Assembly: GCA_964485845.1 (NCBI GenBank)
Contig: CAZAKP010000002.1
Coordinates: forward strand, 1 to 46,344
Source: an uncultured bacterium
GTDB taxonomy: Bacteria > Hydrothermota > Tepidihabitantia > Tepidihabitantales > Tepidihabitantaceae
DNA length: 46,344 bases
Direction: 5' to 3'
The position numbers were made by a program, and so were the translations under genes. Positions 1-40,665 of the stretch are shown here, piece after piece; the first letter of the stretch is position 1, and every line of letters starts with the position of its first letter. The notes under the pieces were generated by a model. That model had not been told where the DNA came from, did not search any database, and was given only the letters and a program-made list of their open reading frames with translations.

Positions 1-78
1 CTATTCAGACGCACCAGCCGTCAGAAGGATGTCAAGCCTTTTTCAACAGCCCCAGCGTCCCTATTTAAGGAGGCAAAC

Positions 79-2658
79 GTGAAGAGCAGTAAGCGAGTGA
101 TGAGAAAGAAAGCGCCGGCGAAGTCGTTCCCGATTGTCGGTATCGGCGCGTCGGCGGGCGGGCTGGAAGCGGTGACCGAGCTTTTGCAGGCGCTGCCCGC
201 CAACCCGGGTATGGCGTTTGTGGTCATGCAGCACCTCGACCCGACGCACGAGAGCGCGCTGCCGACGTTGCTCGGCCGCGTGACGAACCTGCCGGTCGCG
301 GAGGCCAAGCAGAACCTGCGCGTCGAAGTCAACCGCGTCTACGTGATTCCGCCCAACAAGGCCATCCGGGTGGCCGGACGCCGGCTGAAGGTGACGCCGC
401 GCCGGACCGAGAAGGACGTGCGGATGCCGATCGACGAGTTTCTCGTGTCGCTCGCCACCGAGGAGGGAAGCAACGCCATCGGCGTAGTTCTCTCGGGCAA
501 CGGCTCGGACGGCACGGCCGGGCTCATGGCGATCAAGACCGCCGGGGGCATCACGTTCGCGCAGGACGAGAAGACGGCCAAGTACACCTCCATGCCGGCG
601 AGCGCGGTCGCGGCCGGCTGCGTGGATTTCGTTCTGTCGCCCGCCAAGATCGCGAAGGAGATGGTCGCACTTGCCGGCCGCCCGGCGGGCTCGGAAGTGC
701 CCATCCTGCCGACCACGTCGAAGGCGCGCGGTGAGGAACGGGCTTTCGAGGAGATTGTCGCGGTGATCCGCCAGCGGCTCGGCGTGGACTTCACCTACTA
801 CAAGCGCCCGACGCTTGACCGGAGAATCCACCGGCGGATGGCGCTGCGGCGTTTCGACAAGCTGCACGAGTACTCCGACTACCTGCGCCGCCACCCGGCC
901 GAGGTACAGGAGTTGTTCAATGATATCCTCATCCACGTGACCGGCTTCTTCCGGGACAAAAGCGTTTTCACCACGCTGAAGAAGAAGATACTGCCGAGAC
1001 TGGTCAAGGGCCGCGGGCCGGAGGATGCAGTCCGCGTCTGGGTGCCGGGCTGTTCGAGCGGGGAAGAGGTCTATTCCATCACCATTGCGCTGGTGGAATT
1101 TCTCTCGGAAAAGGGGATGCACAACCCGATCCAGGTGTTCGGTACGGACATCAACCTGAAGGCGCTCGACCGCGCCCGGCAGGGCTTCTATCCGGCCGGC
1201 ATCGCCGCCGAGGTGTCGGCGGAACGGCTGCACCGTTTCTTCGCCAAATCCGACAGTGGCTACCGCATCAACAAGACCATCCGCGAGCTGTGCGTGTTCG
1301 CCCGCCAGAACGTGGCCGTGGACCCGCCGTTCTCCAACCTCGACCTGATCAGTTGCCGCAACGTGCTCATCTACCTGGGCGCGCCGCTGCAGCGCAAGGT
1401 GTTTCCGATATTCCACTACGCCCTCCGCCCGGGCGGCTACCTCTTGCTCGGCGCGTCGGAAACCACCGGCGCCGCAGTGGACCTGTTCGAGCTGGCGGAC
1501 AAGAAAGACAAGTTCTACGTGAAGCGGACGACGCTGGTGCGGCCGCCGATTGCGTTCGGGCGCGCCCTGCCCGAGGCGAAGGCCGAAACGCCGGGAGCGG
1601 AGGCGGCAACCGCTCCGGCCCAGCTCGTCCCATCCGCGGCCGAGGTCCAGAAGCAGGCCGACCGGCTGGTACTCACGCACTACAGCCCGATTGGCGTCGT
1701 GGTCAACCGGCAGATGGAGGTGCTCCAGTTCCGGGGCCGCACCGCGGCTTACCTGGAACACGCGCAGGGTGATGCGAGCCTCAACCTCCTGAAGCTGGCG
1801 CGCGAAGGACTGGACCTCGACCTGCGCACTGCGCTCAACAAGGCCATCAGGCAGAACGTCCGGGCCCGGCTGGAGAATGTCCGAGTTCGGCTCAACGGCG
1901 ACTACGGCTTCGTCAACGTCGAGGTGCTGCCCTTCACCGTGCCGCCGTCGCACGAACGTTTCTTCCTCGTCTCGTTCGAACCGGTACCGGAGGTCGAGAC
2001 TCCGGGGGGACGCAGGCCGCGCGGGCGCGGCGCGCGTGGGCCTTCCGAAGGAAAGGAGCTGACCAAGCTGCGTGAGGAGCTGGCGTCGACGCGCGAGTCG
2101 CTGCAGGCGATTATCGAGGAGCAGGAGGCGACCAACGAGGAACTGCGCTCGGCCAACGAAGAGATAACCTCCTCCAACGAAGAGCTGCAGTCGACCAACG
2201 AGGAGCTTGAGACCGCCAAGGAGGAACTGCAGTCTACTAACGAAGAGCTTTCGACGCTCAACGACGAGCTGGAGAGCCGCAACTCCGAACTGGAGAACGT
2301 CAACAACGACCTCCACAACCTCATGGCCAGCGTCAACATCCCGATTGTCATCGTCGGCAGCGACCTGCACATCCGGCGGTTCACCAACGTCGCCGAGAAG
2401 CTGCTCAACCTCATACCCGGCGACGTGGGCCGGCCGATCACCGACATCAAGATGCGCTTGGAGGTGCCGAAGCTCGACAAGCACATCCGCGAGGTAATTG
2501 ACACGCTCCAGACTAAAGACCTCGAAGTGCAGGACGAGAACAGCCACTGGTGGAGCGTGCGGGTTCGCCCCTACAAGACCACCGACCACAAGATCGACGG
2601 CGCGGTAATCGCGTTCGTGGACGTCGACCAACTGAAGAACCCGGTGACAGCGAAGTGA
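79..2658 (+). CDS. Two-component-system CheB/CheR fusion protein: CheB-type methylesterase, CheR-type SAM methyltransferase, heptad coiled coil and C-terminal PAS
   Basis: The N-terminus carries the CheB methylesterase signature (GIGASAGGLEA ... VLSGNGSDGT ... ITFAQDE). The middle region carries a CheR methyltransferase signature (GFFRD ... VWVPGCSSGEEVYS ... NVLIYL). Nine tandem 21-nt/7-aa repeats (xTNEELx) form a coiled coil at nt ~2125..2313, followed by a PAS fold. RBS AGGAGG lies 6 nt upstream of GTG 79; ATG 100 is an alternative start. Confidence 0.85.
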   Translation: MKSSKRVMRKKAPAKSFPIVGIGASAGGLEAVTELLQALPANPGMAFVVMQHLDPTHESALPTLLGRVTNLPVAEAKQNLRVEVNRVYVIPPNKAIRVAGRRLKVTPRRTEKDVRMPIDEFLVSLATEEGSNAIGVVLSGNGSDGTAGLMAIKTAGGITFAQDEKTAKYTSMPASAVAAGCVDFVLSPAKIAKEMVALAGRPAGSEVPILPTTSKARGEERAFEEIVAVIRQRLGVDFTYYKRPTLDRRIHRRMALRRFDKLHEYSDYLRRHPAEVQELFNDILIHVTGFFRDKSVFTTLKKKILPRLVKGRGPEDAVRVWVPGCSSGEEVYSITIALVEFLSEKGMHNPIQVFGTDINLKALDRARQGFYPAGIAAEVSAERLHRFFAKSDSGYRINKTIRELCVFARQNVAVDPPFSNLDLISCRNVLIYLGAPLQRKVFPIFHYALRPGGYLLLGASETTGAAVDLFELADKKDKFYVKRTTLVRPPIAFGRALPEAKAETPGAEAATAPAQLVPSAAEVQKQADRLVLTHYSPIGVVVNRQMEVLQFRGRTAAYLEHAQGDASLNLLKLAREGLDLDLRTALNKAIRQNVRARLENVRVRLNGDYGFVNVEVLPFTVPPSHERFFLVSFEPVPEVETPGGRRPRGRGARGPSEGKELTKLREELASTRESLQAIIEEQEATNEELRSANEEITSSNEELQSTNEELETAKEELQSTNEELSTLNDELESRNSELENVNNDLHNLMASVNIPIVIVGSDLHIRRFTNVAEKLLNLIPGDVGRPITDIKMRLEVPKLDKHIREVIDTLQTKDLEVQDENSHWWSVRVRPYKTTDHKIDGAVIAFVDVDQLKNPVTAK
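2125..2313 (+). repeat. In-frame 21-nt tandem repeats (about 9 units) encoding the xTNEELx heptad coiled coil of the CheB/CheR fusion
   Basis: Direct reading shows aacgaagagctgcagtcgacc / aacgaggagcttgagaccgcc / aaggaggaactgcagtctact and further units. The translation has periodic STNEELQ repeats. Confidence 0.8.
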
Positions 2659-2945
2659 AGCTCAGGCGCTCCGCCAAAACGGGGACTGTCCCTTCCGAAG
2701 TGGGGACAGATCCGCGCCGAGTCCGACGCAGGCGCTCCGCGGACCTGTCCCCGCTTCGCAAGACAGCCTCGCGTCGCTCCGTAGACGTGGAAATAGGGAC
2801 TGTCACTTCGCAGGGCCCTCGTGCGACTGGGGACACATCCGCGCCGCGTTCGTCGCGCCGCTCCGTGGACGTGTCCCCTCCGAAGACTGTCCCCATTTTG
2901 AGGCAGGGGAAGAAGAAGAAAATGGGTAGCGTCCCCATTTTACGG
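2659..2945. repeat. Intergenic block of nested GGGAC/GTCCC palindromes spanning the histidine-kinase start codon
   Basis: GGGGACTGTCCC lies at 2681-2692. Two ~50-nt hairpins of the form GGGGACAN-(tccgcgcc...ctccg.ggac)-NTGTCCCC lie at 2702-2751 and 2829-2878. GGAAATAGGGACTGTC lies at 2783-2798, GTCCCCATTTT at 2890-2900, and AAAATGGG tagc GTCCCCATTTT at 2918-2941 overlaps ATG 2922. Confidence 0.7.
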
Positions 2946-5084
2946 GAACTTCATGACCTGCGGGAGCAGCTTGCTGTCGAGCGGCTGGACTTCGAGTCGG
3001 CCAATGAGGCGGCGATCGAGGCCCTGCGCGAGCTGGAGCTTTCCCGCGAACGCTACGCGGACCTTTTCAATAATGCCCCGCTCGGCTATCTCCTGCTCGA
3101 CCGCAACGGTTTCATCCGCGAAGCCAACCGGACTGCCGCGCTGATGCTGGGTGAGCCTGCCGACCGGCTGTGTAACGTCCTGCTCGCGCACTTCGTCGCC
3201 AAAGAAGACAGGCGGAGCCTGCTAAGGCACCTGAACCGGTGCCGGCACAGCGCGAGTGACGAAGAGGTAACCACCGGGCTGAGGATGGCCGGCGCCGAAG
3301 GCCGGCTGCTTGACGTCGCGCTCACCAGCCGGACGCAGCCGGGAATGCCCAAATCGCTCGCGCAGGTCCGCTATCGCACCGCGATGGTGGACGTTACCGA
3401 CCGCAAACGGGCCGAGGCCCAGGTGCGGGCGGACGTCGCCGCCCTGACCCGAATGCACGATTTGAGCGTTGCTTCCCTGGGCGGGCTGGGCCTCGGGCCG
3501 CTGCTTCAGGAGGTCATGAACACGGCGGTGGCTATCGTCGGTGCAGGTCGGGGCACTCTGCAGTTGCTGGAGGGCGGCTCCCTGAGTATGGCTGCCCAAT
3601 CCGGGCACGAGCAGCCGTTTCTGGAGTTCTTCGGCCGGGCCGAGAACCGGGCCTCGTCGTGCGGCGAGGCGCTCAGGTGCCGGGAACGGGTGATGGTTCC
3701 CGATGTCGAGGCGAGCCCGCTATTCGCCGGCACGCCCTCGCTCGACGTTCTGCGCAAGGCCGGAGTCCGGGCCGTGCAATCAACTCCGATGGTCAGCGCC
3801 TCGGGCAATCTGCTGGGCATCCTGACCACTCACTGGAGCGAACCCCATTCGGTGAACGAGCACGACCTCTGGCGACTTGACCTTTTGGCGCGGCAGGCTG
3901 CCGACCTGATTGAATCCGGCCGCGCGAGACAGGCCCTGCGCGAAAGCGAGGAGAAGTACCGCAGCGTGGTCGAACGGGCGAGTGACGGAATCTGCGTCAT
4001 CCAGCAGGGCCGGCTCAGCTATGTGAACCAGCGGCTGGCAGAGATGGTGCAGCACAAGCCGGAAGAACTGGTCGGCCGGGAGTTCATCGATTACGTATGC
4101 CCGGATGACCGGACGATGGCTCTCGACCAGTACCGCCGCCGCCTCGCCGGCGAGACGTCTTCGTACGAAGTCAGGCTCATCGGCCACGACGGCGACGAGG
4201 TGCTGGTCGAGGTCAACGCCGCGCTGGCGATGTATGGCGGCGAACAGGCCGACATCGTCCTCGTCCGTGACGTCACCGAGCGCCGGCAGGCTGAGCGCAG
4301 ACTGCTGGAGACGCTGGCCGAGCTGAAGCGTTCCAACGAGGAGCTGGAGCAGTTTGCCTACGTCGCGTCGCACGACCTGCAGGAGCCGCTGCGGATGGTT
4401 TCGAACTACGTCGACCTGCTGCGGCGGCGTTACCGGACGAAGCTGGATGGACAGGCCGACAAGTACATCGACTACGCGGCGGGCGGAGCTAAGCGGATGC
4501 AGGCGCTCATCACCGACCTCTTGACGTTCTCCCGAGCCGGCCGGCGCGAGTGGCAGACGACCCGGGTCGACCTCAATCAAGTATTCCAGCGGGCGCTGTG
4601 CAACCTGGAGGCGGCCATCGGTGAAGCCGGCGCGGAAGTCACGTCGAGCACGTTGCCAACCGTCGCCGGCGACGAGCTGGCCCTCGTGCAGTTGTTCCAG
4701 AACCTGATTGACAACGGCATCAAGTTCCGCAGCAAGGAACCGCCGGCGGTGAGAGTGGAAGCGGAGACGCGGGGACGCGGGGACGCGGAGACACGGGGAC
4801 ACGGAGACGCGGAGACGGGGTTCGTCACTATCCGCGTTTCCGACAACGGCATCGGGATCGAGCCGCGCCACGCCGAACGGGTCTTCCGGCTGTTCCAGCG
4901 CCTGCACACGGCCGAGGAGTATCCCGGCACGGGTATCGGCCTCGCGGTGTGTAAGCGCATCGTCGAGCGCCACGGCGGACGCATCTGGGTGGAACCCGGG
5001 TCGGGTAAGGGCACAACTTTCTCATTTACGCTCCCCGGAGGCGAACTGAATGCGGGTCAGCATCCGCCCTCCCGCGAATCATGA
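2922..5084 (+). CDS. Multi-sensor histidine kinase (PAS-GAF-PAS-HisKA-HATPase_c)
   Basis: The phosphoacceptor H-box reads FAYVASHDLQEPLRMV. The N, G1 and G2 boxes read [18 protein letters not shown] and [18 protein letters not shown]. The ORF track extends to 2550, but the upstream in-frame region is low-complexity and Arg-rich, so ATG 2922 (MGSVPIL) was chosen. The 8-nt tandem repeat at 4761-4817 encodes ETRGRGDAETRGHGDAETG. Confidence 0.8.
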   Translation: MGSVPILRELHDLREQLAVERLDFESANEAAIEALRELELSRERYADLFNNAPLGYLLLDRNGFIREANRTAALMLGEPADRLCNVLLAHFVAKEDRRSLLRHLNRCRHSASDEEVTTGLRMAGAEGRLLDVALTSRTQPGMPKSLAQVRYRTAMVDVTDRKRAEAQVRADVAALTRMHDLSVASLGGLGLGPLLQEVMNTAVAIVGAGRGTLQLLEGGSLSMAAQSGHEQPFLEFFGRAENRASSCGEALRCRERVMVPDVEASPLFAGTPSLDVLRKAGVRAVQSTPMVSASGNLLGILTTHWSEPHSVNEHDLWRLDLLARQAADLIESGRARQALRESEEKYRSVVERASDGICVIQQGRLSYVNQRLAEMVQHKPEELVGREFIDYVCPDDRTMALDQYRRRLAGETSSYEVRLIGHDGDEVLVEVNAALAMYGGEQADIVLVRDVTERRQAERRLLETLAELKRSNEELEQFAYVASHDLQEPLRMVSNYVDLLRRRYRTKLDGQADKYIDYAAGGAKRMQALITDLLTFSRAGRREWQTTRVDLNQVFQRALCNLEAAIGEAGAEVTSSTLPTVAGDELALVQLFQNLIDNGIKFRSKEPPAVRVEAETRGRGDAETRGHGDAETGFVTIRVSDNGIGIEPRHAERVFRLFQRLHTAEEYPGTGIGLAVCKRIVERHGGRIWVEPGSGKGTTFSFTLPGGELNAGQHPPSRES
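4761..4817 (+). repeat. 8-nt coding microsatellite (G[GA]GACRCG)x7 inside the histidine-kinase ATP-binding domain
   Basis: Direct reading gives gagacgcg gggacgcg gggacgcg gagacacg gggacacg gagacgcg gagacggg. The unit length is not a multiple of 3. The paralogous gene carries only 2 units (8771-8789) and loses frame. Confidence 0.75.
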
Positions 5085-28623: not shown

Positions 28624-28658
28624 ATGAAAAGGGACGGGCCGAGGCCCGTCCCTGTTTT
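28621..28658 (-). terminator. Rho-independent terminator of the second oxidase, same stem as at 14135
   Basis: GGGACGGGC cgag GCCCGTCCC has T-rich flanks on both strands. Confidence 0.6.
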
Positions 28659-30950: not shown

Positions 30951-31853
30951 ATGAAGGTCTACCTAACCGTGAAGATTGATGCCAAGCCCTCGGCCGCGAA
31001 AGCGCATCGAGCGCCACAGGAAGTAGCGACCGCTCCCCACGCAATCTGGACCGGCACCGTCAGTTTCGGCTCCATCGCGTTTCCGGTAAGGCTGCGTCCG
31101 GCGGTGCGCGAACGGCGGGTTCAGTTCAACCTGCTCCATAAGTCCGACCTTGTCAGGCTGAAACGACAAATGGTCTGTTCGCTCGAAGGCGCGCCCGTTC
31201 CGCCCGAAGACCAGGCCCGTGGCTTCGAATTGGAGGGAGGCAGGTACATCCTGGTCGACCCGGCCGAATTGGAGAAGGCGGAGCCGGAAGCAAGCCGGGC
31301 GATAGCGGTACACGAGTTCGTGGGCGTTGCCGAAATCGACCCGGTGTATTTTGAACGGGGATACTATCTTGAGCCGGCGGAGGATGCAGGGAAAACGGGC
31401 GACAGTCCCCCGGCGCGCCTGCTCCGGACTCAGCGCGGGTCAGTCTCCGTTTTCCCGGAACTGGCGGCGGTGCTGGAAGAGGAGCGCCTCGCGGGCATCT
31501 GCACGTGGGTGATGCGCAAGCGGGCTTACGTCGGCGCGATTCTGTCGGCCGGCGGCGTGCTGCGGCTGAACGTCATTCGCCATCCGGGCGAGGTCATCAA
31601 GGTAGCAAGGCCGGCGGCCGGTTCGGCGCTGTCGGACCGCGAGCTTGCGGTCGGCAGCGAACTCATCAACCAGATGACCGGGAAATTCCAGCCGGAGAAG
31701 TTCACGAACAGCCACCAGCAACGGCTGCGGCAGCTCATCGAGCGCAAGGCGCACGGGCAGAAGATTCGCCTCGTCACGCCGAAGCGCCGCGCTGCCACCG
31801 AGCCGGATAAGCTGCTTTCCGTCCTCGAAGCCAGTCTGAGGAAAGTGGCATGA
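30951..31853 (+). CDS. ku: Ku protein (NHEJ DNA-end-binding), copy 1
   Basis: IWTGTVSFGSIAFPVRL ... ERGYYLEP ... is present. There is a ~30-aa N-terminal extension before the conserved IW.G.ISFG motif. Confidence 0.8.
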   Translation: MKVYLTVKIDAKPSAAKAHRAPQEVATAPHAIWTGTVSFGSIAFPVRLRPAVRERRVQFNLLHKSDLVRLKRQMVCSLEGAPVPPEDQARGFELEGGRYILVDPAELEKAEPEASRAIAVHEFVGVAEIDPVYFERGYYLEPAEDAGKTGDSPPARLLRTQRGSVSVFPELAAVLEEERLAGICTWVMRKRAYVGAILSAGGVLRLNVIRHPGEVIKVARPAAGSALSDRELAVGSELINQMTGKFQPEKFTNSHQQRLRQLIERKAHGQKIRLVTPKRRAATEPDKLLSVLEASLRKVA

Positions 31854-32731
31854 GGAAAGTAAAAAGGACGAAGGACAAAGGACGAAGTCCGGACCGGCGG
31901 ACGGCTCTACCGGCGAAGGTCACGGGCGCGTTTCGACCGACCAGCGACACGAGCCCGGAAGTCTGGCGCGGGACAATCAGCTTCAGTCTTGTCGCCATCC
32001 CGGTCCGGCTGGTTGAGGCAATATCGCCCGACCGGGTTTCCTTCCGGCTGCTGCATCGGAAAGACTACGCGCCGCTCGTGAGCCGGATGCTCTGCCCGAA
32101 CGAAGGGAAGATAGTTCCGAGCGAGGAGATTGTCCGGGGATTTGAGTATAAGCCGGGAAGCTACATCCCGATGACCGCGGCCGAGCTGGAGTCGGTCACC
32201 CCGGAGCGCAGCCGCACCATCGAGGTCACCGACTTCGTTCCCGCCGCGGATGTCGATACGGTCTACTTCGACTACCAGTATTACCTCCAGCCGATGAAGG
32301 GCGGAGAGAAGCCGTATCGCCTGCTGGTCGAGGTGCTGAAGCGCGCCGGGAAAGCCGGCGTCGCGAGCCTCGTGCTGGCCGAACGCGAATACCCGGCGCT
32401 CATCCGGAGCGTGAACGGGCTCCTGGCCGTGAATACGCTGCACTACCCGGACGAAATAGCACCCGTAACAGGGGTAAACACGGAGACGCGGGGACACGCA
32501 GACGCGGAGAAGGAGCGCATCAGGCGGGCGGTGCGGAAGATGGCTGCGAAGTTCGAACCCGATAAGTACGCGGACGAGCGGCGGGCGAAGATCGTGGCGC
32601 TCTTGAAGCGGAAGCTGGCGGGCGAATCGCTGGTGCAGGCGCCCGAGACCGAGGAGACACAAGGCCGGGCGGGTTCGGACCTTGAGGAGCTGCTCGAGGC
32701 CAGCATCGCCAAGGGCGGGAAGAAGGCGTGA
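31850..32731 (+). CDS. ku: Ku protein, copy 2 (tandem paralog) with a Lys/Arg-rich N-terminal extension
   Basis: VWRGTISFSLVAIPVRL ... DYQYYLQP is present. The N-terminus reads MRKVKRTKDKGRSPDRR. An 8-nt repeat (gagacgcg gggacacg cagacgcg) lies at ~32470-32500. The ATGA overlaps the copy 1 stop. Confidence 0.8.
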   Translation: MRKVKRTKDKGRSPDRRTALPAKVTGAFRPTSDTSPEVWRGTISFSLVAIPVRLVEAISPDRVSFRLLHRKDYAPLVSRMLCPNEGKIVPSEEIVRGFEYKPGSYIPMTAAELESVTPERSRTIEVTDFVPAADVDTVYFDYQYYLQPMKGGEKPYRLLVEVLKRAGKAGVASLVLAEREYPALIRSVNGLLAVNTLHYPDEIAPVTGVNTETRGHADAEKERIRRAVRKMAAKFEPDKYADERRAKIVALLKRKLAGESLVQAPETEETQGRAGSDLEELLEASIAKGGKKA

Positions 32732-33675
32732 GCGCAAGGCCGAGGACCGCGGCGCGCCGGACGGCCAGGCGGCCGCAGCGCGAGACGTTTGCCCGGGTCG
32801 GCGGAATCGAGCTGCCGCTTACCAATCTCGAGAAGGACCTCTATCCTGCCTACGGTTTCACCAAAGCCCGGGTGCTCGACTACTATCGGCGGATTTCCAG
32901 GTTCATCCTTCCGCACCTGCGCGACCGGGCGCTGACCCTTAAGCGCTATCCCGACGGCACCGGCGGGCCTTTTTTCTTCGAGAAGCGCTGCCCCTCGTCC
33001 CGGCCGGGCTGGGTTCACCTCGCGAGCGTTCCCGCGCTCGACGGCCAGAGCATTACAGCCTGCGTCGTCAACGACCTCCGCACCCTGATGTGGGTGGAGA
33101 ATCTTGCCTCGATTGAACTCCACGTGCCGCTGGCGCGGGTCGACTCGCCGCACGCGCCGGACTCGCTCGTCTTCGACCTTGATCCCGGCCCGGGCGCGGG
33201 TATGGCCGAATGCTGCCGGGTCGCGCTCATCATCCGCCACATGCTCGAACGGCTGCGCGTGTCGTGCCTCGTCAAGACCTCCGGGATGAAAGGGCTTCAC
33301 GTCCTCGTTCCGCTGAACCGCCAGGAGGTGACGTTCGAGCGGACGCGCGACTTCTCGAAGGCGCTCGCCGCGCTGATACAGCGCGCCAATCCCGAACTCG
33401 TGACAACCCTCGTCGGGAAGGCGGAAAGGGAACGCAGGGTATTCATCAACTGGGCCCAGAACAGCTCGGCCAAGACAATGGTGGCCGTGTATTCGCTTCG
33501 CGCGCGCGAGGCGCCGGCCGTGTCCTGTCCGGTCACGTGGCCCGAGGTCGAAGGCGGAGCGGCGGGCCGCGCCAAACTCACCATCCTTCACACCGACGCC
33601 GTGCGCCGAGCGGAGAAGCTGGGCGACCTTTTCCAGGACGTACTGACGCGGCGCCAGGCCCTTCCCCACCTGTAG
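32728..33675 (+). CDS. Stand-alone LigD polymerase/primase (PolDom) domain protein
   Basis: LTNLEKDLYPAYGFTKARVLDYY ... LKRYPDG ... FFFEK ... FDLDPGPG ... KTSGMKGLHVLVPL ... VFINWAQNSSAKTMVAVYSLRAR is present. No ATP-ligase domain lies in the window. Confidence 0.8.
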   Translation: MSARPRTAARRTARRPQRETFARVGGIELPLTNLEKDLYPAYGFTKARVLDYYRRISRFILPHLRDRALTLKRYPDGTGGPFFFEKRCPSSRPGWVHLASVPALDGQSITACVVNDLRTLMWVENLASIELHVPLARVDSPHAPDSLVFDLDPGPGAGMAECCRVALIIRHMLERLRVSCLVKTSGMKGLHVLVPLNRQEVTFERTRDFSKALAALIQRANPELVTTLVGKAERERRVFINWAQNSSAKTMVAVYSLRAREAPAVSCPVTWPEVEGGAAGRAKLTILHTDAVRRAEKLGDLFQDVLTRRQALPHL

Positions 33676-36278: not shown

Positions 36279-36794
36279 AGTTACCTCCATCAGGCGACTC
36301 GGGCGTCAACCTGACGGCCGGCCGCCTCATTCAAAGCTCAACTCTCTCTCGACCGCGCCTTCGTGAACACGACCAACGGCGCCGAAAACGTCCGGCGCCG
36401 CGCTCACACGGTGGCTATGTGCATTATGCGTGCCGCTCAGTTCGCCGTGGTGGGAGGGAACTCAGTTCCAGTCTTGGCAATGAGCCGGTCAAGGCCCGAT
36501 GCTCGGCGCGTAACTCCCGAGGTTACATATTGCCCGGATTATACTTCGCCCGTTGCACACTTCAGCGGCAAGATTCCGGATTCCTGCCTCTGCCGTCCAT
36601 CTCTCCGACTTCCAACGCCTGCTTATGCCGTGCCTTGGTGCCTTGCATACCGGGCATGTTTCCTGCAAGCATTCGGCCATGCGTCCGCGCGCAGGCGCGG
36701 TTTGATTAAGGCACGGCCAGGTGGCGTACGGGGTATCCGACCAGGTTACGCGACATCGGGCCGACGTCCGGCAGTATTGGAGAAAGGAACTGCA

Positions 36795-37190
36795 ATGGAG
36801 AATTTGAGCAGCCACATTCAGCGGGCAGACTGGCAGAAGGAAAAGCACGTCCCGGTAATCGAGTGCCCGGAAAAGGTCGCGGCCGACACCGAGTTCGCGG
36901 TCAAGGTGAGCCTTGGCAAACAGATCGCCCACCCCAACACAACCGAGCACCACATCCGCTGGATAGACCTTTACTTCTGCGCGGAAGGGGCGAAGAACAC
37001 GTCCCAGGTGGGCCACTTTGAGTTCACGCTGCACGGCGAGTCGGTCGAGGGTCCCAACCAGGGGCCGGCCTACTCAAGTCACGCCGTCACCGCGTACATG
37101 AAGACCAAAAAGCCGGGATGCCTGCATGCGCTGGCCTACTGCAACATCCACGGACTTTGGGAGAGTACAAAAGAGCTGAAACTGACCTAG
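36795..37190 (+). CDS. Superoxide reductase (1Fe neelaredoxin / desulfoferrodoxin centre-II type)
   Basis: The EKHVPVIE and YCNIHGLWES motifs are the SOR iron ligands. The ORF track places it within 36363..37190; the start is taken at ATG 36795. Confidence 0.75.
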   Translation: MENLSSHIQRADWQKEKHVPVIECPEKVAADTEFAVKVSLGKQIAHPNTTEHHIRWIDLYFCAEGAKNTSQVGHFEFTLHGESVEGPNQGPAYSSHAVTAYMKTKKPGCLHALAYCNIHGLWESTKELKLT

Positions 37191-37199
37191 GAGGCGCAA

Positions 37200-37550
37200 A
37201 TGCCCGAATTCCTGAACCCTTTCCCCGGCCGCGTGCCGGACCGCAAGCTTGGCAAGGAAGAGCTGGTGCGGGCGCTCCGGCTTGACCTCGCGGCCGAGCA
37301 CGAGGCGGTACATCTCTACCTCGCTCACGCCGACGCCTGTGAAGACCCGCTGGCCGAGGCAGTGCTGCGCGACATTGCCGACGAGGAGCGGAAGCACATC
37401 GGCGAATTCATGCGCCTGATACTGCTCCTGACCGGCAACGAGCAACAGCTCACCGACTCAGGCGCGCAGGAGGTGGAGCAGATGCGGTCGACACTGGCGG
37501 GTAATAAGAAAACGACGGTCGGTTCGCTGATCGAGACGAAGGAGGCGTGA
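37200..37550 (+). CDS. Encapsulin cargo: ferritin-like protein (EncFtn/Flp type) with a C-terminal targeting peptide
   Basis: The ferritin-like ExxH motifs are AAEHEAVH and DEERKHIGE. The C-terminus TVGSLIETKEA matches the encapsulin cargo-loading peptide consensus. RBS AGGAGG is present. It lies immediately upstream of the shell gene. Confidence 0.7.
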   Translation: MPEFLNPFPGRVPDRKLGKEELVRALRLDLAAEHEAVHLYLAHADACEDPLAEAVLRDIADEERKHIGEFMRLILLLTGNEQQLTDSGAQEVEQMRSTLAGNKKTTVGSLIETKEA

Positions 37551-38341
37551 TGGGCAGCGACTTCGAGAACCGGGCTCTCTCGGGCATTGGTGACAAGACG
37601 TGGGAAGTGCTGGAGCGGGCCGCGGTCGGGGCGGCCAAAAGCCAGCTCTCGGCGCGGCGGTTCATTTCGATTGAGGGGCCGTACGGCCTTGGGGTCCAGG
37701 CAGTGCCCCTGGCCGACGAACATTCGCCGGATGGCCACGCGGTCGCCCGGCTCCTCTCGCTCCACTATCTCTTTCGTACCTTCGGCATGAGCCTGCGCGA
37801 CATCGCCGTCTACGAGCGGGAGTCGCTCACGCTCGATGTCGGGCCGGCGGCGAGCGCCGCCATCGAGTGTGCCCGGGCCGAAGAGGAACTCATCTTTTCG
37901 GGCAGCAAAAAGGCCCCCGGGCTCATATCCTCCGCCGGCGTCGAACGGCACAAACTCGCCTCGTGGCAGCCTTTGGGCAAGGCGGCGGCCGACGCGGTGG
38001 AAGCGGTGAACAAGCTCGACGCCGCCGGGTTCCACGGGCCCTACGCGCTCGCGCTCGCGCCTGCCCGCCACAACCTTTTGTACCGGCTCTATCCCGACGG
38101 CAACGGCACCGAGCTCGGGCACATCGAGAAGATTGTCGGCGGCGGCGTGTTCAAGAGCCCGGCCCTGAAGACGGGCGGTGTGCTGCTTGCCACCGGCGAG
38201 CAGTTCTCGGCCATCGTCATCGGCCAGGACCTCTCCGTCGGCTACGTCGGCCGGGTCGGACCGGACGTCCAGTTGTCGGTTTCAGAGAGCATCGCTCTCT
38301 ACCTGCGCGAACCCAAGGCCGTCTGTGCTTTGGAAGATTGA
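37550..38341 (+). CDS. Family-1 encapsulin nanocompartment shell protein (Linocin M18 / HK97 fold)
   Basis: It is 263 aa. RRFISIEGPYGLG and GQDLSVGYVGR correspond to the T. maritima encapsulin motifs RKFVDVEGPYGWE and GQDLSIGYEDR. The start ATG overlaps the cargo stop (gTGATGg). Confidence 0.8.
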   Translation: MGSDFENRALSGIGDKTWEVLERAAVGAAKSQLSARRFISIEGPYGLGVQAVPLADEHSPDGHAVARLLSLHYLFRTFGMSLRDIAVYERESLTLDVGPAASAAIECARAEEELIFSGSKKAPGLISSAGVERHKLASWQPLGKAAADAVEAVNKLDAAGFHGPYALALAPARHNLLYRLYPDGNGTELGHIEKIVGGGVFKSPALKTGGVLLATGEQFSAIVIGQDLSVGYVGRVGPDVQLSVSESIALYLREPKAVCALED

Positions 38342-38446
38342 TTACGACCCTGCGTCTACCACCCAGCGTGGGGTCGTTCCCCAAAAGGGAGGGAGAGCGC
38401 CAACCGGCGCTCTTCTCTTGGCAGTTGGGCTGAAAGTGAGGTAACT

Positions 38447-38568
38447 ATGAACCCGATATTGAACCACAGAGCACACAGAGAACACCGAGGCTCGCGTGCG
38501 GAGTCCAGACTCCGGACCTTTGCCCGCTCTGTGAACTCTGTGCCCTCCGTGGTTGATCCTGTCCCCAT
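38447..38568. repeat. MITE-like palindromic repeat element, copy A
   Basis: The left arm is CCCGATATTGAACCACAGAGCACACAGAGAACAC. The right arm gctctgtgaactctgtgccctccgtggttgatcc is its imperfect reverse complement. It is followed by TGTCCCCATC. It produces the spurious NPILNHR ORF. Confidence 0.6.
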
Positions 38569-38738
38569 CCGGACACCGGTTTCGGCCGATCTGCGTTCTC
38601 ATCTGGCTCTGTGGTCGGCCGACCGTGGGCTCGGGGAGGAACGCCCGGACGCTACCGAAGGCTCGGTGCAGACCCGCGCCTTCAGTCGACTCTGGCGAGC
38701 TGCCTGGTCGGGCCCGACCTCGAATCAGCGGAGAAGAC

Positions 38739-40523
38739 GTGGCGGATGAAATCTTCACGCTGATTGCCGGCGGCAAGGCCGGCTACGGCATCCGCAAAGC
38801 CGGCACCTCGGCCGCGCGGCTCTTCGCGCGCATGGGAAGGCGAGTCTTCCAGATGGACGACTATCCGAGCCTGATCCGCGGCGGCCACAACTTCTTCTCC
38901 GTATCGACGTCCCGCAGTCAGATAACCAGCCACTACCTGAAGGCCGACCTCGTGGTCTGCCTCGACCAGCGCTCGGTCGACGCTCACCGCGACCATCTCA
39001 AGCCGGGCGGCTTCATGGTGTTCGACGACAAAGCCCGCCTGCCCGACTCGTCGCCAATCGCCAATCACGCATCGCTCCCCATCTCCACCGAGGCAAAGAA
39101 GTACCCGGACCCCGACCTGGTAACCGGCGTCGCGGTCGCGGCGGTACTTGCTTCCGCTATCGGCATGTCGCACGACGAGCTGATGCGCTTCATCGAGCAG
39201 GAGTACCCGCGCGGCACCGAGAATAACAAAGCCTATGCGAGCGCCATCTATAGCGCGGCCGAGCCCGCGCTTGCCGGCCGGTTCAAGCTGGAACGCGGCG
39301 ACAGGCAGCGGCCGATGCTCTCGGGCAACGATGCCATCGCTCTCGGCGCGGTCGCCTCCGGGCTCGACGCCTTCTTCGCCTACCCAATGACCCCGGCGTC
39401 CTCCATTCTCACGTTCCTCGCCGCCAGGGCCGGCGAACTTGGCACCGTCGTGGTCCATCCCGAGAACGAAATCGGGGTCATGAACATGGCCATCGGCGCG
39501 GCCGCGGCCGGCGCCCGGACCATGGTCGCGTCAAGCGGCGGTGGCTTCGCGCTGATGCAGGAAGCGTTCTCGCTCGCGGGCATGGCCGAGGTGCCGCTTC
39601 TCTGCGTGCTGTCCTCGCGCCCCGGGCCGTCGACCGGCCTGCCTACCTACACGTCCCAGGGCGACCTCGACTTTGCCTTAAACCAGGGGCACGGCGAGTT
39701 CCCGCGGGTCGTGGCGTCGCCGGGCAGCATCGAGGAAGCCTACCTGCTCGCGGCAGAACTCATGAGCCTGGCCTGGGAATTCCAGACGCCGGCTATACTC
39801 CTGACCGAAAAGCACCTCTCCGAAAGCCGGATGACCGTTGAACTGGACCTCGAAAAGGCTGCCTGGGCCGAGGAATTTGGGAAAACGGGGGAAATGGGGA
39901 CTGGAATGGGGGAAATAGGGACAGTCCCTGAAGGTACAGTCCCTATTTCCCCGTACCAGCGCTACCTCGACACCCCGACCGGAATCTCGCCGCTCGCCTT
40001 CCCGCCATCCAAAGAGCTCATCAAATGGAACAGCTACGAACACGACGAAGCCGGACTCACAACCGAAGACGCGGGGATGTCGGCGCGGATGGCCGACAAA
40101 CGCCGCCGCAAAGGCGAGTGCCTTGCCGCCCACATCCGGGTCCTGAATACAGTGAACGTGTATCCTGCGCCTCATTCGGGCGGGGACATGACCCAATCGT
40201 CCTCGATTGGGATCGTGTCCCAGGCCGGCGCGGATTCACCCGTCATCATCACCTATGGCTCAACCACGCTCAGCGTGCTCGAGGCCCTGCGCTACGGCGG
40301 CATCCGGGCCACCGTTGTCCAGCCGCGGTTCCTCCGGCCGCTGCCCGAGTGGGAGCTTGCCCGCTACGGGGGAAAGCACGTAACCGTGGTCGAAGAGAGT
40401 GTAACCGGCCAGTTCGCAACGCTGCTCAAAGAGAAGGCGGGCATTACCGCCGAACGGGTTATAAAACGCTACGACGGCCGCCCCTTCTCCCCGGACGACC
40501 TCGCCGAGCAACTCAGGAGTTAA
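38739..40523 (+). CDS. korA: 2-oxoacid:ferredoxin oxidoreductase alpha subunit (gamma-alpha fused, KorA-type)
   Basis: The N-terminal gamma-like domain reads IAGGKAGYGIRKAG ... LIRGGHNFFSVS. The alpha-domain motif reads SGNDAIALGAVASGLDAFFAYPMTPASSI. The start is GTG 38739 with GGAG upstream. A 75-nt palindromic insertion lies at 39878-39952. Confidence 0.8.
   Translation: MADEIFTLIAGGKAGYGIRKAGTSAARLFARMGRRVFQMDDYPSLIRGGHNFFSVSTSRSQITSHYLKADLVVCLDQRSVDAHRDHLKPGGFMVFDDKARLPDSSPIANHASLPISTEAKKYPDPDLVTGVAVAAVLASAIGMSHDELMRFIEQEYPRGTENNKAYASAIYSAAEPALAGRFKLERGDRQRPMLSGNDAIALGAVASGLDAFFAYPMTPASSILTFLAARAGELGTVVVHPENEIGVMNMAIGAAAAGARTMVASSGGGFALMQEAFSLAGMAEVPLLCVLSSRPGPSTGLPTYTSQGDLDFALNQGHGEFPRVVASPGSIEEAYLLAAELMSLAWEFQTPAILLTEKHLSESRMTVELDLEKAAWAEEFGKTGEMGTGMGEIGTVPEGTVPISPYQRYLDTPTGISPLAFPPSKELIKWNSYEHDEAGLTTEDAGMSARMADKRRRKGECLAAHIRVLNTVNVYPAPHSGGDMTQSSSIGIVSQAGADSPVIITYGSTTLSVLEALRYGGIRATVVQPRFLRPLPEWELARYGGKHVTVVEESVTGQFATLLKEKAGITAERVIKRYDGRPFSPDDLAEQLRS
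39878..39952 (+). repeat. In-frame GGGAC-family palindromic insertion inside korA (encodes GKTGEMGTGMGEIGTVPEGTVPIS)
   Basis: GGGGAAATAGGGACAGTCCCT gaaggt ACAGTCCCTATTTCCCC forms a 14-bp perfect inverted repeat. The same AAATAGGGAC / GTCCCYATTT motif occurs at 55-68, 2783-2798, 2890-2941 and 38559-38568. Confidence 0.65.
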
Positions 40524-40574
40524 GAATGGGTACCAGGATTCTCAGGTTCGGGGTTCTGCCTCGTCTTCCTGCCC

Positions 40575-40665
40575 TTCGTGCCTTTGTGTCTTTGTGGTTG
40601 AATCCGCCTCCTGCCCGCCGGGCATTTTGCATTTTGATATTTGCATTCTGCAATTTGACTTGCCC
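40575..40665. repeat. Partial copy B of the repeat element in the 170-nt korA-korB spacer
   Basis: ctttgtgtctttgtggttgaatcc is the reverse complement of GGATTCAACCACAAAGACACAAAG, matching the CACAGAG terminus. The internal motif GCATTCTGCAATTTGACTTGCC lies at 40643-40664. Confidence 0.55.

Follow-up and report, generated by a model that had tools for sequence, protein, structure and literature searches.

The window analyzed here is a 46,344-nucleotide (nt) stretch of an uncultured bacterium of the Hydrothermota (GenBank assembly GCA_964485845.1, contig CAZAKP010000002.1, positions 1 to 46,344; GC content, 64%), and the subject is a family of nested GGGAC/GTCCC palindromes within it. These palindromes fill the spacer between a CheB/CheR-PAS fusion gene (CheBR; 79/100..2658) and a PAS/GAF histidine kinase gene (start called at ATG 2922), and they recur in frame in korA. 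In the region examined, the window does not differ from metagenome contigs of several samples taken from anoxic lakes, and its KorA is 71% identical to KorA of a metagenome-assembled genome (MAG) labeled candidate division WOR-3 (GCA_016935295.1). The elements are probably short, nonautonomous palindromic repeats of the repetitive extragenic palindromic (REP)/REPIN (REP doublet forming a hairpin) type, with a conserved lower stem that matches the inverted termini around IS200-like Y1 (HUH) genes resembling those of REP-associated tyrosine transposases (RAYTs). An earlier note, made from the letters of the window alone, had offered a mobile REP-like element as one of two explanations; dispersed repeat modules, covarying hairpin stems, in-frame copies, and RAYT-like Y1 genes bracketed by the same motifs in other genomes now bear it out.

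The description of the CheBR-kinase spacer as packed with inverted repeats was accurate, with 24 inverted-repeat pairs in positions 2659 to 2921. Of the 263 nt of this spacer, 226 are repeat derived, and folding it as a single strand gives -142.8 kcal/mol (z = -4.6). The motif GTCCCYATTT is enriched in the window: there are seven exact matches on both strands (positions 57, 2791[-], 2889, 2931, 39892[-], 39913[-], and 39939) versus 0.03 expected from dinucleotide shuffles, and 0 of 100 shuffles reached seven. The bare palindrome GGGACNGTCCC is enriched only weakly (9 matches versus 3.5 expected); the enrichment signal resides in longer units. Three such units, which we call modules A, B, and C, have the stem GGGGACA…TGTCCCC in common. 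Module A is a hairpin of ~40 nt, module B consists of GGGACWGTCCC doublets with outer arms AAAAYG/CRTTTT, and module C is a 50-nt hairpin. The following features lie in and around the spacer:

57..66, plus strand: solitary half-site GTCCCTATTT, an exact motif match and the right-hand outer arm of a B-type unit, abutting the CheBR Shine-Dalgarno sequence AAGGAGG (67-73)
2675..2692, plus strand: left terminal arm of a composite, CAAAAC + GGGGACTGTCCC, a B-type unit; pairs with 2885-2900
2702..2752, plus strand: family-C hairpin copy 1, GGGGACAGATCCGCG…CCGCGGACCTGTCCCC; -24.1 kcal/mol, z = -4.7
2768..2789, plus strand: truncated C-hairpin 3' half, CTCGCGTCGCTCCGTAGACGTG, matching 2853-2873 within C copy 2 at 90% identity
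2789..2806, plus strand: left arm of a second composite unit, GGAAATAGGGACTGTCAC, from a motif match and repeat analysis
2829..2878, plus strand: family-C hairpin copy 2, GGGGACACATCCGCGCCGCGTTCGTCGCGCCGCTCCGTGGACGTGTCCCC, with few differences from the near-invariant 50-nt consensus
2885..2900, plus strand: right terminal arm of the composite, GACTGTCCCCATTTTG; pairs with the 2675-2692 arm
2919..2941, plus strand: degenerate solitary B-type palindrome AAAATGGGTAGCGTCCCCATTTT, which supplies the kinase ATG (2922) and the codons MGSVPIL

Region 2675 to 2900 is made of at least two B–C–B composites, joined or nested, plus the truncated C half. Its left terminal arm begins 17 nt past the CheBR stop codon, and the corresponding consensus GGAAAAYGGGGACTGTMCC forms the left end in 30 composite copies; the arm GGAAATAGGGACTGTCAC followed by the spacer TTCGCAGGGCCCTGTGCGACT is also present at four other loci (L214, L254, L271, and L252; L numbers designate loci throughout). 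An empty-site counterpart of the spacer was sought among kinase orthologues, but none was closer than 48% partial identity. An open kinase reading frame (2517-5084) runs across the whole repeat-filled spacer and overlaps the CheBR 3' end, for which the probability by composition is ~5%; the kinase may start further upstream or may formerly have been fused with CheBR.

The second explanation in the earlier note was a binding site for a regulator of translation initiation, considered here as operators for a dimeric DNA- or RNA-binding regulator of cheBR and the kinase. GGGAC-N-GTCCC is indeed a dyad, copies touch the CheBR ribosome-binding site and cover the kinase ATG, and tandem dyads occur in an early-looking region of a low-GC viral contig. 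However, the exact copy at 57 to 66, although it abuts the Shine-Dalgarno sequence, is a half-site with no GGGAC partner within ~140 nt upstream (L001). The hairpin AAAATGGG-tagcgtc-CCCATTTT at 2919 to 2941 does contain the ATG, which gene callers use as the kinase start on identical contigs, but its fold is weak (-5.9 kcal/mol; z = -1.6) and no more stable than those of shuffled sequences. A further copy claimed at 38559 to 38568 reads GTCCCCATCC, which has two mismatches and is not a copy of the motif. Most copies, in the window and elsewhere, are far from start codons and lie in open reading frames (ORFs), at gene 3' ends, or nested in one another, and the viral contig with the tandem dyads itself encodes a Y1 transposase flanked by dyads. 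A regulator site is therefore highly improbable. The contacts with the CheBR ribosome-binding site and the kinase ATG are incidental by-products of insertion into intergenic DNA, and one B-type remnant has been co-opted as the kinase start codon; an incidental effect of the palindromes on expression may nevertheless exist. REPs are known to affect mRNA stability or translation of the upstream gene, and by analogy such effects are possible for the palindromes of the window.

A second concentration of elements lies in korA. The KorA protein of the window has 594 amino acids (aa), compared with a typical 551 aa among its closest 120 homologues, and the korA alignment contains three length-variable sites. 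Palindromes occupy these sites in the window, in L007 (73% identical), and in L186, whereas L187 and L188 are "empty" at all three (48, 54, and 45 nt). The gains over orthologues are 57 and 63 nt in the window and 36, 36, and 69 nt in L007. The inserts differ in frame and in their upper stems, and the ORF is kept open in all of them. In the window, they comprise the following:

39879..39908, plus strand: partial B-type units, GGGAAAACGGGGGAAATGGGGACTGGAATG, identified by repeat and orthologue comparison
39909..39952, minus strand: complete B-type element in frame, GGGGAAATA GGGACTGTaCC TTCA GGGACTGTCCC TATTTCCCC; -18.4 kcal/mol, z = -5.4
40182..40221, plus strand: canonical family-A hairpin in frame, GGGGACATGACCCAATCG tcc TCGATTGGGATCGTGTCCC; -22.9 kcal/mol, z = -5.8

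A single 75-nt, 24-aa palindromic insertion had been proposed for this gene. An in-frame palindrome with perfect 14-bp arms (GGGGAAATAGGGAC/GTCCCTATTTCCCC, at 39909-39922 and 39939-39952) is present and is absent from orthologues of 549 to 551 aa, but the palindromic segment (39879-39952) measures 74 nt, the net gain is 57 nt or 19 codons, and the second in-frame insert at 40182 to 40221 had been overlooked. The B element encodes …EIGTVPEGTVPIS…, and its architecture recurs in the WOR-3-like contigs L013 and L131; the A hairpin, which encodes …GGDMTQSSSIGIVSQ…, is absent from L186, L187, and L188. The peptide segments predicted from the two inserts are GEIGTVPEGTVPISPY and GGDMTQSSSIGIVSQ. The korA inserts, including both window inserts, align to gaps in the solved 2-oxoacid:ferredoxin oxidoreductase (OFOR) 5B48. 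As judged from these alignments, the B and A elements sit in two length-variable loops and are predicted to be read through as peptide inserts of 19 to 21 residues. The empty sites in L187 and L188 form a small sample that suggests an insertion preference for preexisting GGGAC/GTCCC.

All three modules are dispersed repeats. A scan for module A in one genome per species yielded at least 118 stretches, all in MAGs and with more than 10 phylum-level labels; those among the matches listed include Armatimonadetes, Aminicenantes, Acidobacteriota, Desulfobacterota, Planctomycetota, WOR-3, Chloroflexota, Actinomycetes/Acidimicrobiia, Bipolaricaulota, Alphaproteobacteria, Myxococcota, and Clostridia. 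Several of these stretches are on contigs of 0.2 to 3.3 Mb, and the GC content of the loci ranges from 0.44 to 0.73. The core of module A is constant (the inserts of L007 and the window have GGGACATGACC…GGATCGTGTCCC in common), and the upper stem and loop vary between copies yet remain complementary. In the alignment, 97.6% of cells are paired, double-change cells number 130 versus 34 in shuffles (0 of 500 shuffles reached the observed value), and the pairing collapses once the partner column is slid. Most copies are asymmetric, with a G·T pair and a bulged A, and a few are perfect palindromes. Outer arms of the type GGAAAnnG/CnnTTTCC lengthen the hairpin in many lineages, including Armatimonadetes and Planctomycetota, and account for the AAATGGGGAC/GTCCCCATTT motif of the earlier note. 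Folding each half of an element as its own short hairpin was also considered and rejected, as only the long-hairpin pairing holds in the Planctomycetota and WOR-3 copies. A family-A covariance model built from 76 copies identifies one canonical copy in the window, at 40173 to 40231 (core, 40182-40221; 59.1 bits; E = 1.5e-14).

The module B unit is GGGACTGTCCC–spacer–GGGACTGTCCC with outer arms of the module A type. Besides L013 and L131, it is present in 53 IMG/VR viral stretches with 33 to 72% GC, many of them from Mu-like phages, both in ORFs and between genes, and its in-frame signature is "GTVP." The Mu-like phage genes with in-frame copies include those at L136 4197-4815, L145 724-3781, and L165 4911-7022; the phage carriers are large structural genes and a GemA/gp16-like protein ending in …GTVPEFSAEKPGTVPGE.

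Module C, with the near-invariant consensus GGGGACACATCCGCGACGCGTTCCTCGCGTCGCTCCGTGGACGTGTCCCC, is known from 97 metagenome stretches, one of which (L205) is the locus of the window itself. It is usually placed between two B units, forming a composite of ~115 nt with unique flanks and consensus outer arms GGAAAAYG…CRTTTTCC, in which the paired inverted units fold into a long hairpin. Across the whole spacer, the korA inserts, and C copy 1, the z scores of the element folds range from -4.6 to -5.8. Coding-like ORFs contain 11 of the 62 evaluable module C copies (~18%) and do not span the other 51. In low-GC genomes, element copies are almost all intergenic. Frame counts of spanning ORFs cannot gauge translation of the inserts, as the criterion already excludes stops. 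Database searches returned no known family: at gathering and permissive thresholds, Rfam 15 gave only tRNAs and noise for the window and seven element-rich loci, a literature text search for the literal element sequences retrieved unrelated primers only, and BLAST of the canonical element against PLSDB plasmids and GenBank phages gave no match.

Clustering of the genes neighboring the elements revealed only type IX secretion system-tailed proteins, ABC-F proteins, and Mu-like phage genes. A search for IS200/RAYT-like proteins directed at the DNA of the element loci produced matches at two loci. In total, transposase genes are associated with the elements at six loci outside the window:

L118, Magnetovibrio MAG: module-A hairpins at 1522-1562(-) and 2251-2291(+), in inverted orientation around a Y1_Tnp gene at 1622-2257 (PF01797, E = 1e-10; NF047646, 68 bits)
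L040: module-A hairpin and GGGGACACAATAC end on the upstream side of the Y1 gene, with no element seen downstream
L286 (L286/287): Y1 gene flanked by GGGGACACCATAC…GTATGGTGTCCCC
L289 (L289/290) and L291: Y1 genes flanked by GGGGACAGTATAC…GTATACTGTCCCC
L149, a viral contig (33% GC) with abundant module B: Y1_Tnp gene with GGGACTGTCCC on either side

The motif-bracketed genes include those of Magnetovibrio, an alphaproteobacterium, Bipolaricaulota, Smithella, and the viral contig. They score above the PF01797 cutoff (E = 1e-10 to 4e-13), and the HUH (NHVHLI) and Tyr (RYVELNP) motifs are invariant in the RAYT-like proteins, which are 63 to 77% identical across Rhodospirillales, Magnetococcales, Bipolaricaulota, and Smithella. 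Related ends, GGTGACAGTGCAC, also occur in a viral clade at a greater distance (46% identity). In L291, ~1 kb upstream of the RAYT-like gene, positions 1889 to 2000 hold seven tandem 17-nt units, each with GGGGACA (GGAATTCCGGGGACAGG). In modules A, B, and C alike, the conserved lower stem is therefore also the inverted terminus of a transposase unit, which is the relation that defines REP/REPIN–RAYT systems (PMC3116915, PMC3733652, PMC5581495).

If the elements are of this type, a trans-acting RAYT would recognize the imperfect hairpin on single-stranded DNA, where the imperfections would be the G·T wobble and bulged A in module A, the central T·T mismatch in module B, and the asymmetric internal loop in module C. 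The transposase would move or copy the elements without target-site duplication (TSD), new copies would often land in or beside older ones and produce nested palindromes, and in-frame residence in korA would be tolerated, as for the Rickettsia elements discussed below. We infer that a RAYT of this clade mobilizes the elements in the organism of the window and that the elements are mainly selfish; for this lineage, the conclusion remains indirect because its sequence contains no RAYT gene that we could see and no empty-site allele was found.

The absence of TSDs bears on another explanation, namely, that the elements are miniature inverted-repeat transposable elements (MITEs) moved by a DDE transposase, with GGGGACA…TGTCCCC as terminal inverted repeats (TIRs) and with insertion generating TSDs. 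In the window, the direct repeat TCCGAAG (2694-2700 and 2879-2885) flanks the inner spacer block, but it belongs to the spacer consensus of the element itself (TCCGNG). A second observation in its favor is an element of ~190 bp in the Desulfocapsa MAG CAZIDU01 (L019, L039, L059, L072, L078, L108, and L120), which has a module-A hairpin at its center, TIRs GTAACTATTCACC/GGTGAATAGTTAC, and 8-bp TSDs (CGGTATTG, TCATACTG). These TIRs are unrelated to the hairpin, which is a central passenger. No TSD was found around full elements with unique flanks in Armatimonadetes, Planctomycetota, or the B–C–B composites, and the sole transposase genes found bracketed by the motif are of the Y1/HUH type. We thus consider a DDE-driven origin quite unlikely.

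Several observations weigh against the REP/REPIN-type assignment. No Y1 transposase gene is present in the 46-kb window or in ~0.55 Mb of related GC-rich module-C contigs, and the best and sole NCBIfam match of the Y1 genes elsewhere, NF047646 ("REP-associated tyrosine transposase"), reaches 63 to 68 bits against a cutoff of 80. The metagenome scan recovered no empty korA allele, and recent mobility is accordingly not demonstrated. The family-A model matches the spacer copies and the korA B copy weakly (E = 0.05 to 0.3; C copy 1 gives 14 bits on the minus strand), so that their kinship with module A rests on shared termini and co-occurrence in composites. The elements end in GGGGACA…TGTCCCC, and neither the module A alignment nor the C consensus has a terminal GTAG or CGTC. 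The Desulfocapsa MITE, with its module-A hairpin, implies that other routes of mobilization exist. Lastly, at an orthologous gene-3' locus represented by 14 haplotypes (L194-L283; e.g., L229 3501-3550, at the 3' end of a conserved gene, …AQVLLEKWQxRG), module C is 98.5% identical, compared with 86% and 82% for its flanks, which is unexpected for neutral junk. The 98.5% figure covers the part of the element that is not fixed by the search pattern, and since retrieval required a match at 27 fixed positions, the estimate is biased toward conserved copies. Selection, concerted evolution, or repeated site-specific insertion could account for this conservation at the LLEKWQ locus.

Such conservation is one argument for an explanation in which the host has selected the hairpins as cis-acting structures of RNA or DNA, whose mobility is secondary or extinct. 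Their possible roles would be those of mRNA 3'-end stabilizers, transcription terminators or attenuators, sites of RNase processing, and partners of domesticated RAYTs. Compensatory changes preserve the stem, the first hairpin lies just past the CheBR stop codon, true terminators of the window also have AAAAGGGAC…GTCCCTGTTTT, and published arguments hold that REPINs are beneficial and long-lived (PMC5581495; bioRxiv 10.1101/2021.07.10.451892). Yet copies occur in both orientations and within ORFs and phage structural genes, no Rfam family matches, and the retrieval bias applies to the conservation estimate; concerted evolution or repeated reinsertion would likewise keep copies similar. The C hairpins lack a T-run (U-tract in the transcript), and a terminator scan of the plus strand from 2500 to 3100 detected no sense-strand intrinsic terminator. 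We consider this explanation unlikely, although less so than DDE-driven movement. Elsewhere in the window, convergent genes are separated by a bidirectional terminator-like hairpin, AAAAGGGACGGGCC-ga-GGCCCGTCCCTGTTTT (28627-28658; -12.9 kcal/mol; z = -3.9), which has the GGGAC/GTCCC base of the repeats yet differs from the element hairpins.

A further reading combines mobility with co-option. The conservation of module C and the identity of the core across phyla are unlike classic, vertically inherited REPINs, and on this basis the hairpins and the Y1 transposase could be a single REPIN-like system with horizontal transmission among more than 10 phyla, in part by way of Mu-like and other phages, and the near invariance of module C could reflect its recruitment to a host role, such as one at the 3' ends of genes. 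We regard this combination as unlikely, though a little more plausible than purely host-selected structures.

Under the preferred REP/REPIN-type reading, the resemblance to known systems is extensive. As in REP/REPIN–RAYT systems, the elements are short imperfect palindromes in many dispersed copies, with doublets and composites that form longer hairpins, mostly intergenic and without TSDs, and single Y1/HUH IS200-like genes are bracketed by inverted repeats (L118, L286, L289, L291, and L149; upstream only in L040). REPINs have been described (PMC3116915), RAYT groups are found in many bacterial classes (PMC5581495), and REPs have been reported in eight phyla, as dimers, and within ORFs (PMC3733652). 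The described REP superfamilies carry an unpaired GTAG or CGTC tag (PMC3733652), unlike the ends found here. The three-module architecture, the transposase score below the NCBIfam RAYT cutoff, and the intragenic location of ~18% of copies also set the present elements apart. Classic REPIN–RAYT pairs are lineage specific and mostly vertically inherited, whereas here the same core and a 63 to 77% identical transposase occur across phyla and in phage contigs.

The korA inserts invite comparison with the Rickettsia palindromic elements (RPEs), reportedly described by Ogata et al. in 2000. RPEs are 100 to 150 bp long and confined to Rickettsia, and we know of no dedicated transposase for them. The likeness is that palindromes reside in frame in conserved protein genes at length-tolerant positions, where they are presumably read as an extra peptide. 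The sequences are nevertheless unrelated to RPE-1 to RPE-10, the inserts are shorter (40 to 75 nt versus 100 to 150 bp), and the hosts are WOR-3-related bacteria and many other phyla rather than Rickettsia. RPEs have been classified as REP-type elements, RPE-4 and RPE-6 being CGTC-type REPs, and the korA pattern agrees with RPEs and intragenic REPs as described (PMC3733652).

The elements may also be likened to IS200/IS605-derived palindrome-associated transposable elements (PATEs) and to the left- and right-end hairpins of IS608, in which imperfect subterminal hairpins on single-stranded DNA are recognized by a Y1 HUH transposase. In IS608-type hairpins, mismatched or extrahelical bases mark the active strand, and the imperfections found here may be comparable. 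The ends of IS200/IS605 elements themselves, in contrast, are not mutual inverted repeats, and they insert 3' to a defined tetra- or pentanucleotide; for the present elements, no cleavage site or target motif emerged. MITEs such as Correia/NEMIS, ERIC, and Nezha are similarly small nonautonomous repeats with TIRs, sometimes cotranscribed or inside ORFs, but they have TSDs and DDE partners, which were seen here only for the unrelated carrier MITE of Desulfocapsa.

Other features were noted around korA. Another inverted-repeat family, unrelated to the elements (AACCACAAAGACACCAAGA/TCTTGGTGTCTTGGTGGTT and variants), is found both 5' of korA and in the korA-korB gap (window, 38463-38615 and 40560-40600; L007, 2827-3104). 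As korB overlaps the korA stop codon in L186 and L188, this family, too, has the appearance of repeats that were inserted. Also 5' of korA is a short leader, AAAGTGAGGTAACTATGAACC (window, 38434-38455; L007, 807-830), which is conserved despite a differing surrounding spacer and may be a small ORF or a regulatory element. Directly 5' of korAB is a cluster encoding desulfoferrodoxin, a ferritin-like protein, and encapsulin (Linocin_M18) (36363-38341), which is syntenic in relatives. Its desulfoferrodoxin ORF has 275 aa, compared with 131 aa in relatives, and thus either its start is probably overextended or the upstream part is inserted DNA. Nonhomologous end-joining genes at 30951 to 33675 comprise two tandem Ku genes followed by a stand-alone LigD primase-polymerase gene; in a relative, the latter locus continues with a LigD ligase gene.

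The GGGGACA…TGTCCCC elements are a fresh addition to a known class, being both REP/REPIN-like and RPE-like, and introduce no new principle. They explain an odd 263-nt spacer and two otherwise unexplained KorA peptide inserts in an uncultured WOR-3-related bacterium, and they identify "GTVP," "SDRVP," and "GDTSATRSSRRSVDVSP" segments in many metagenomic proteins as repeat derived, which bears on gene calling, protein-family alignments, and structure prediction in candidate phyla. The family is a REP-like one that tolerates in-frame residence and that shows unusual cross-phylum conservation of both the hairpin and the cognate Y1 transposase. To our knowledge, RAYT recognition and movement of REPINs have not been reconstituted for most families; a defined hairpin-enzyme pair, such as the Bipolaricaulota or Smithella gene with its 13-nt ends, would be tractable for this purpose. 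Horizontal spread across phyla, if true, would contradict the view of REPIN–RAYT pairs as vertically inherited and lineage specific.

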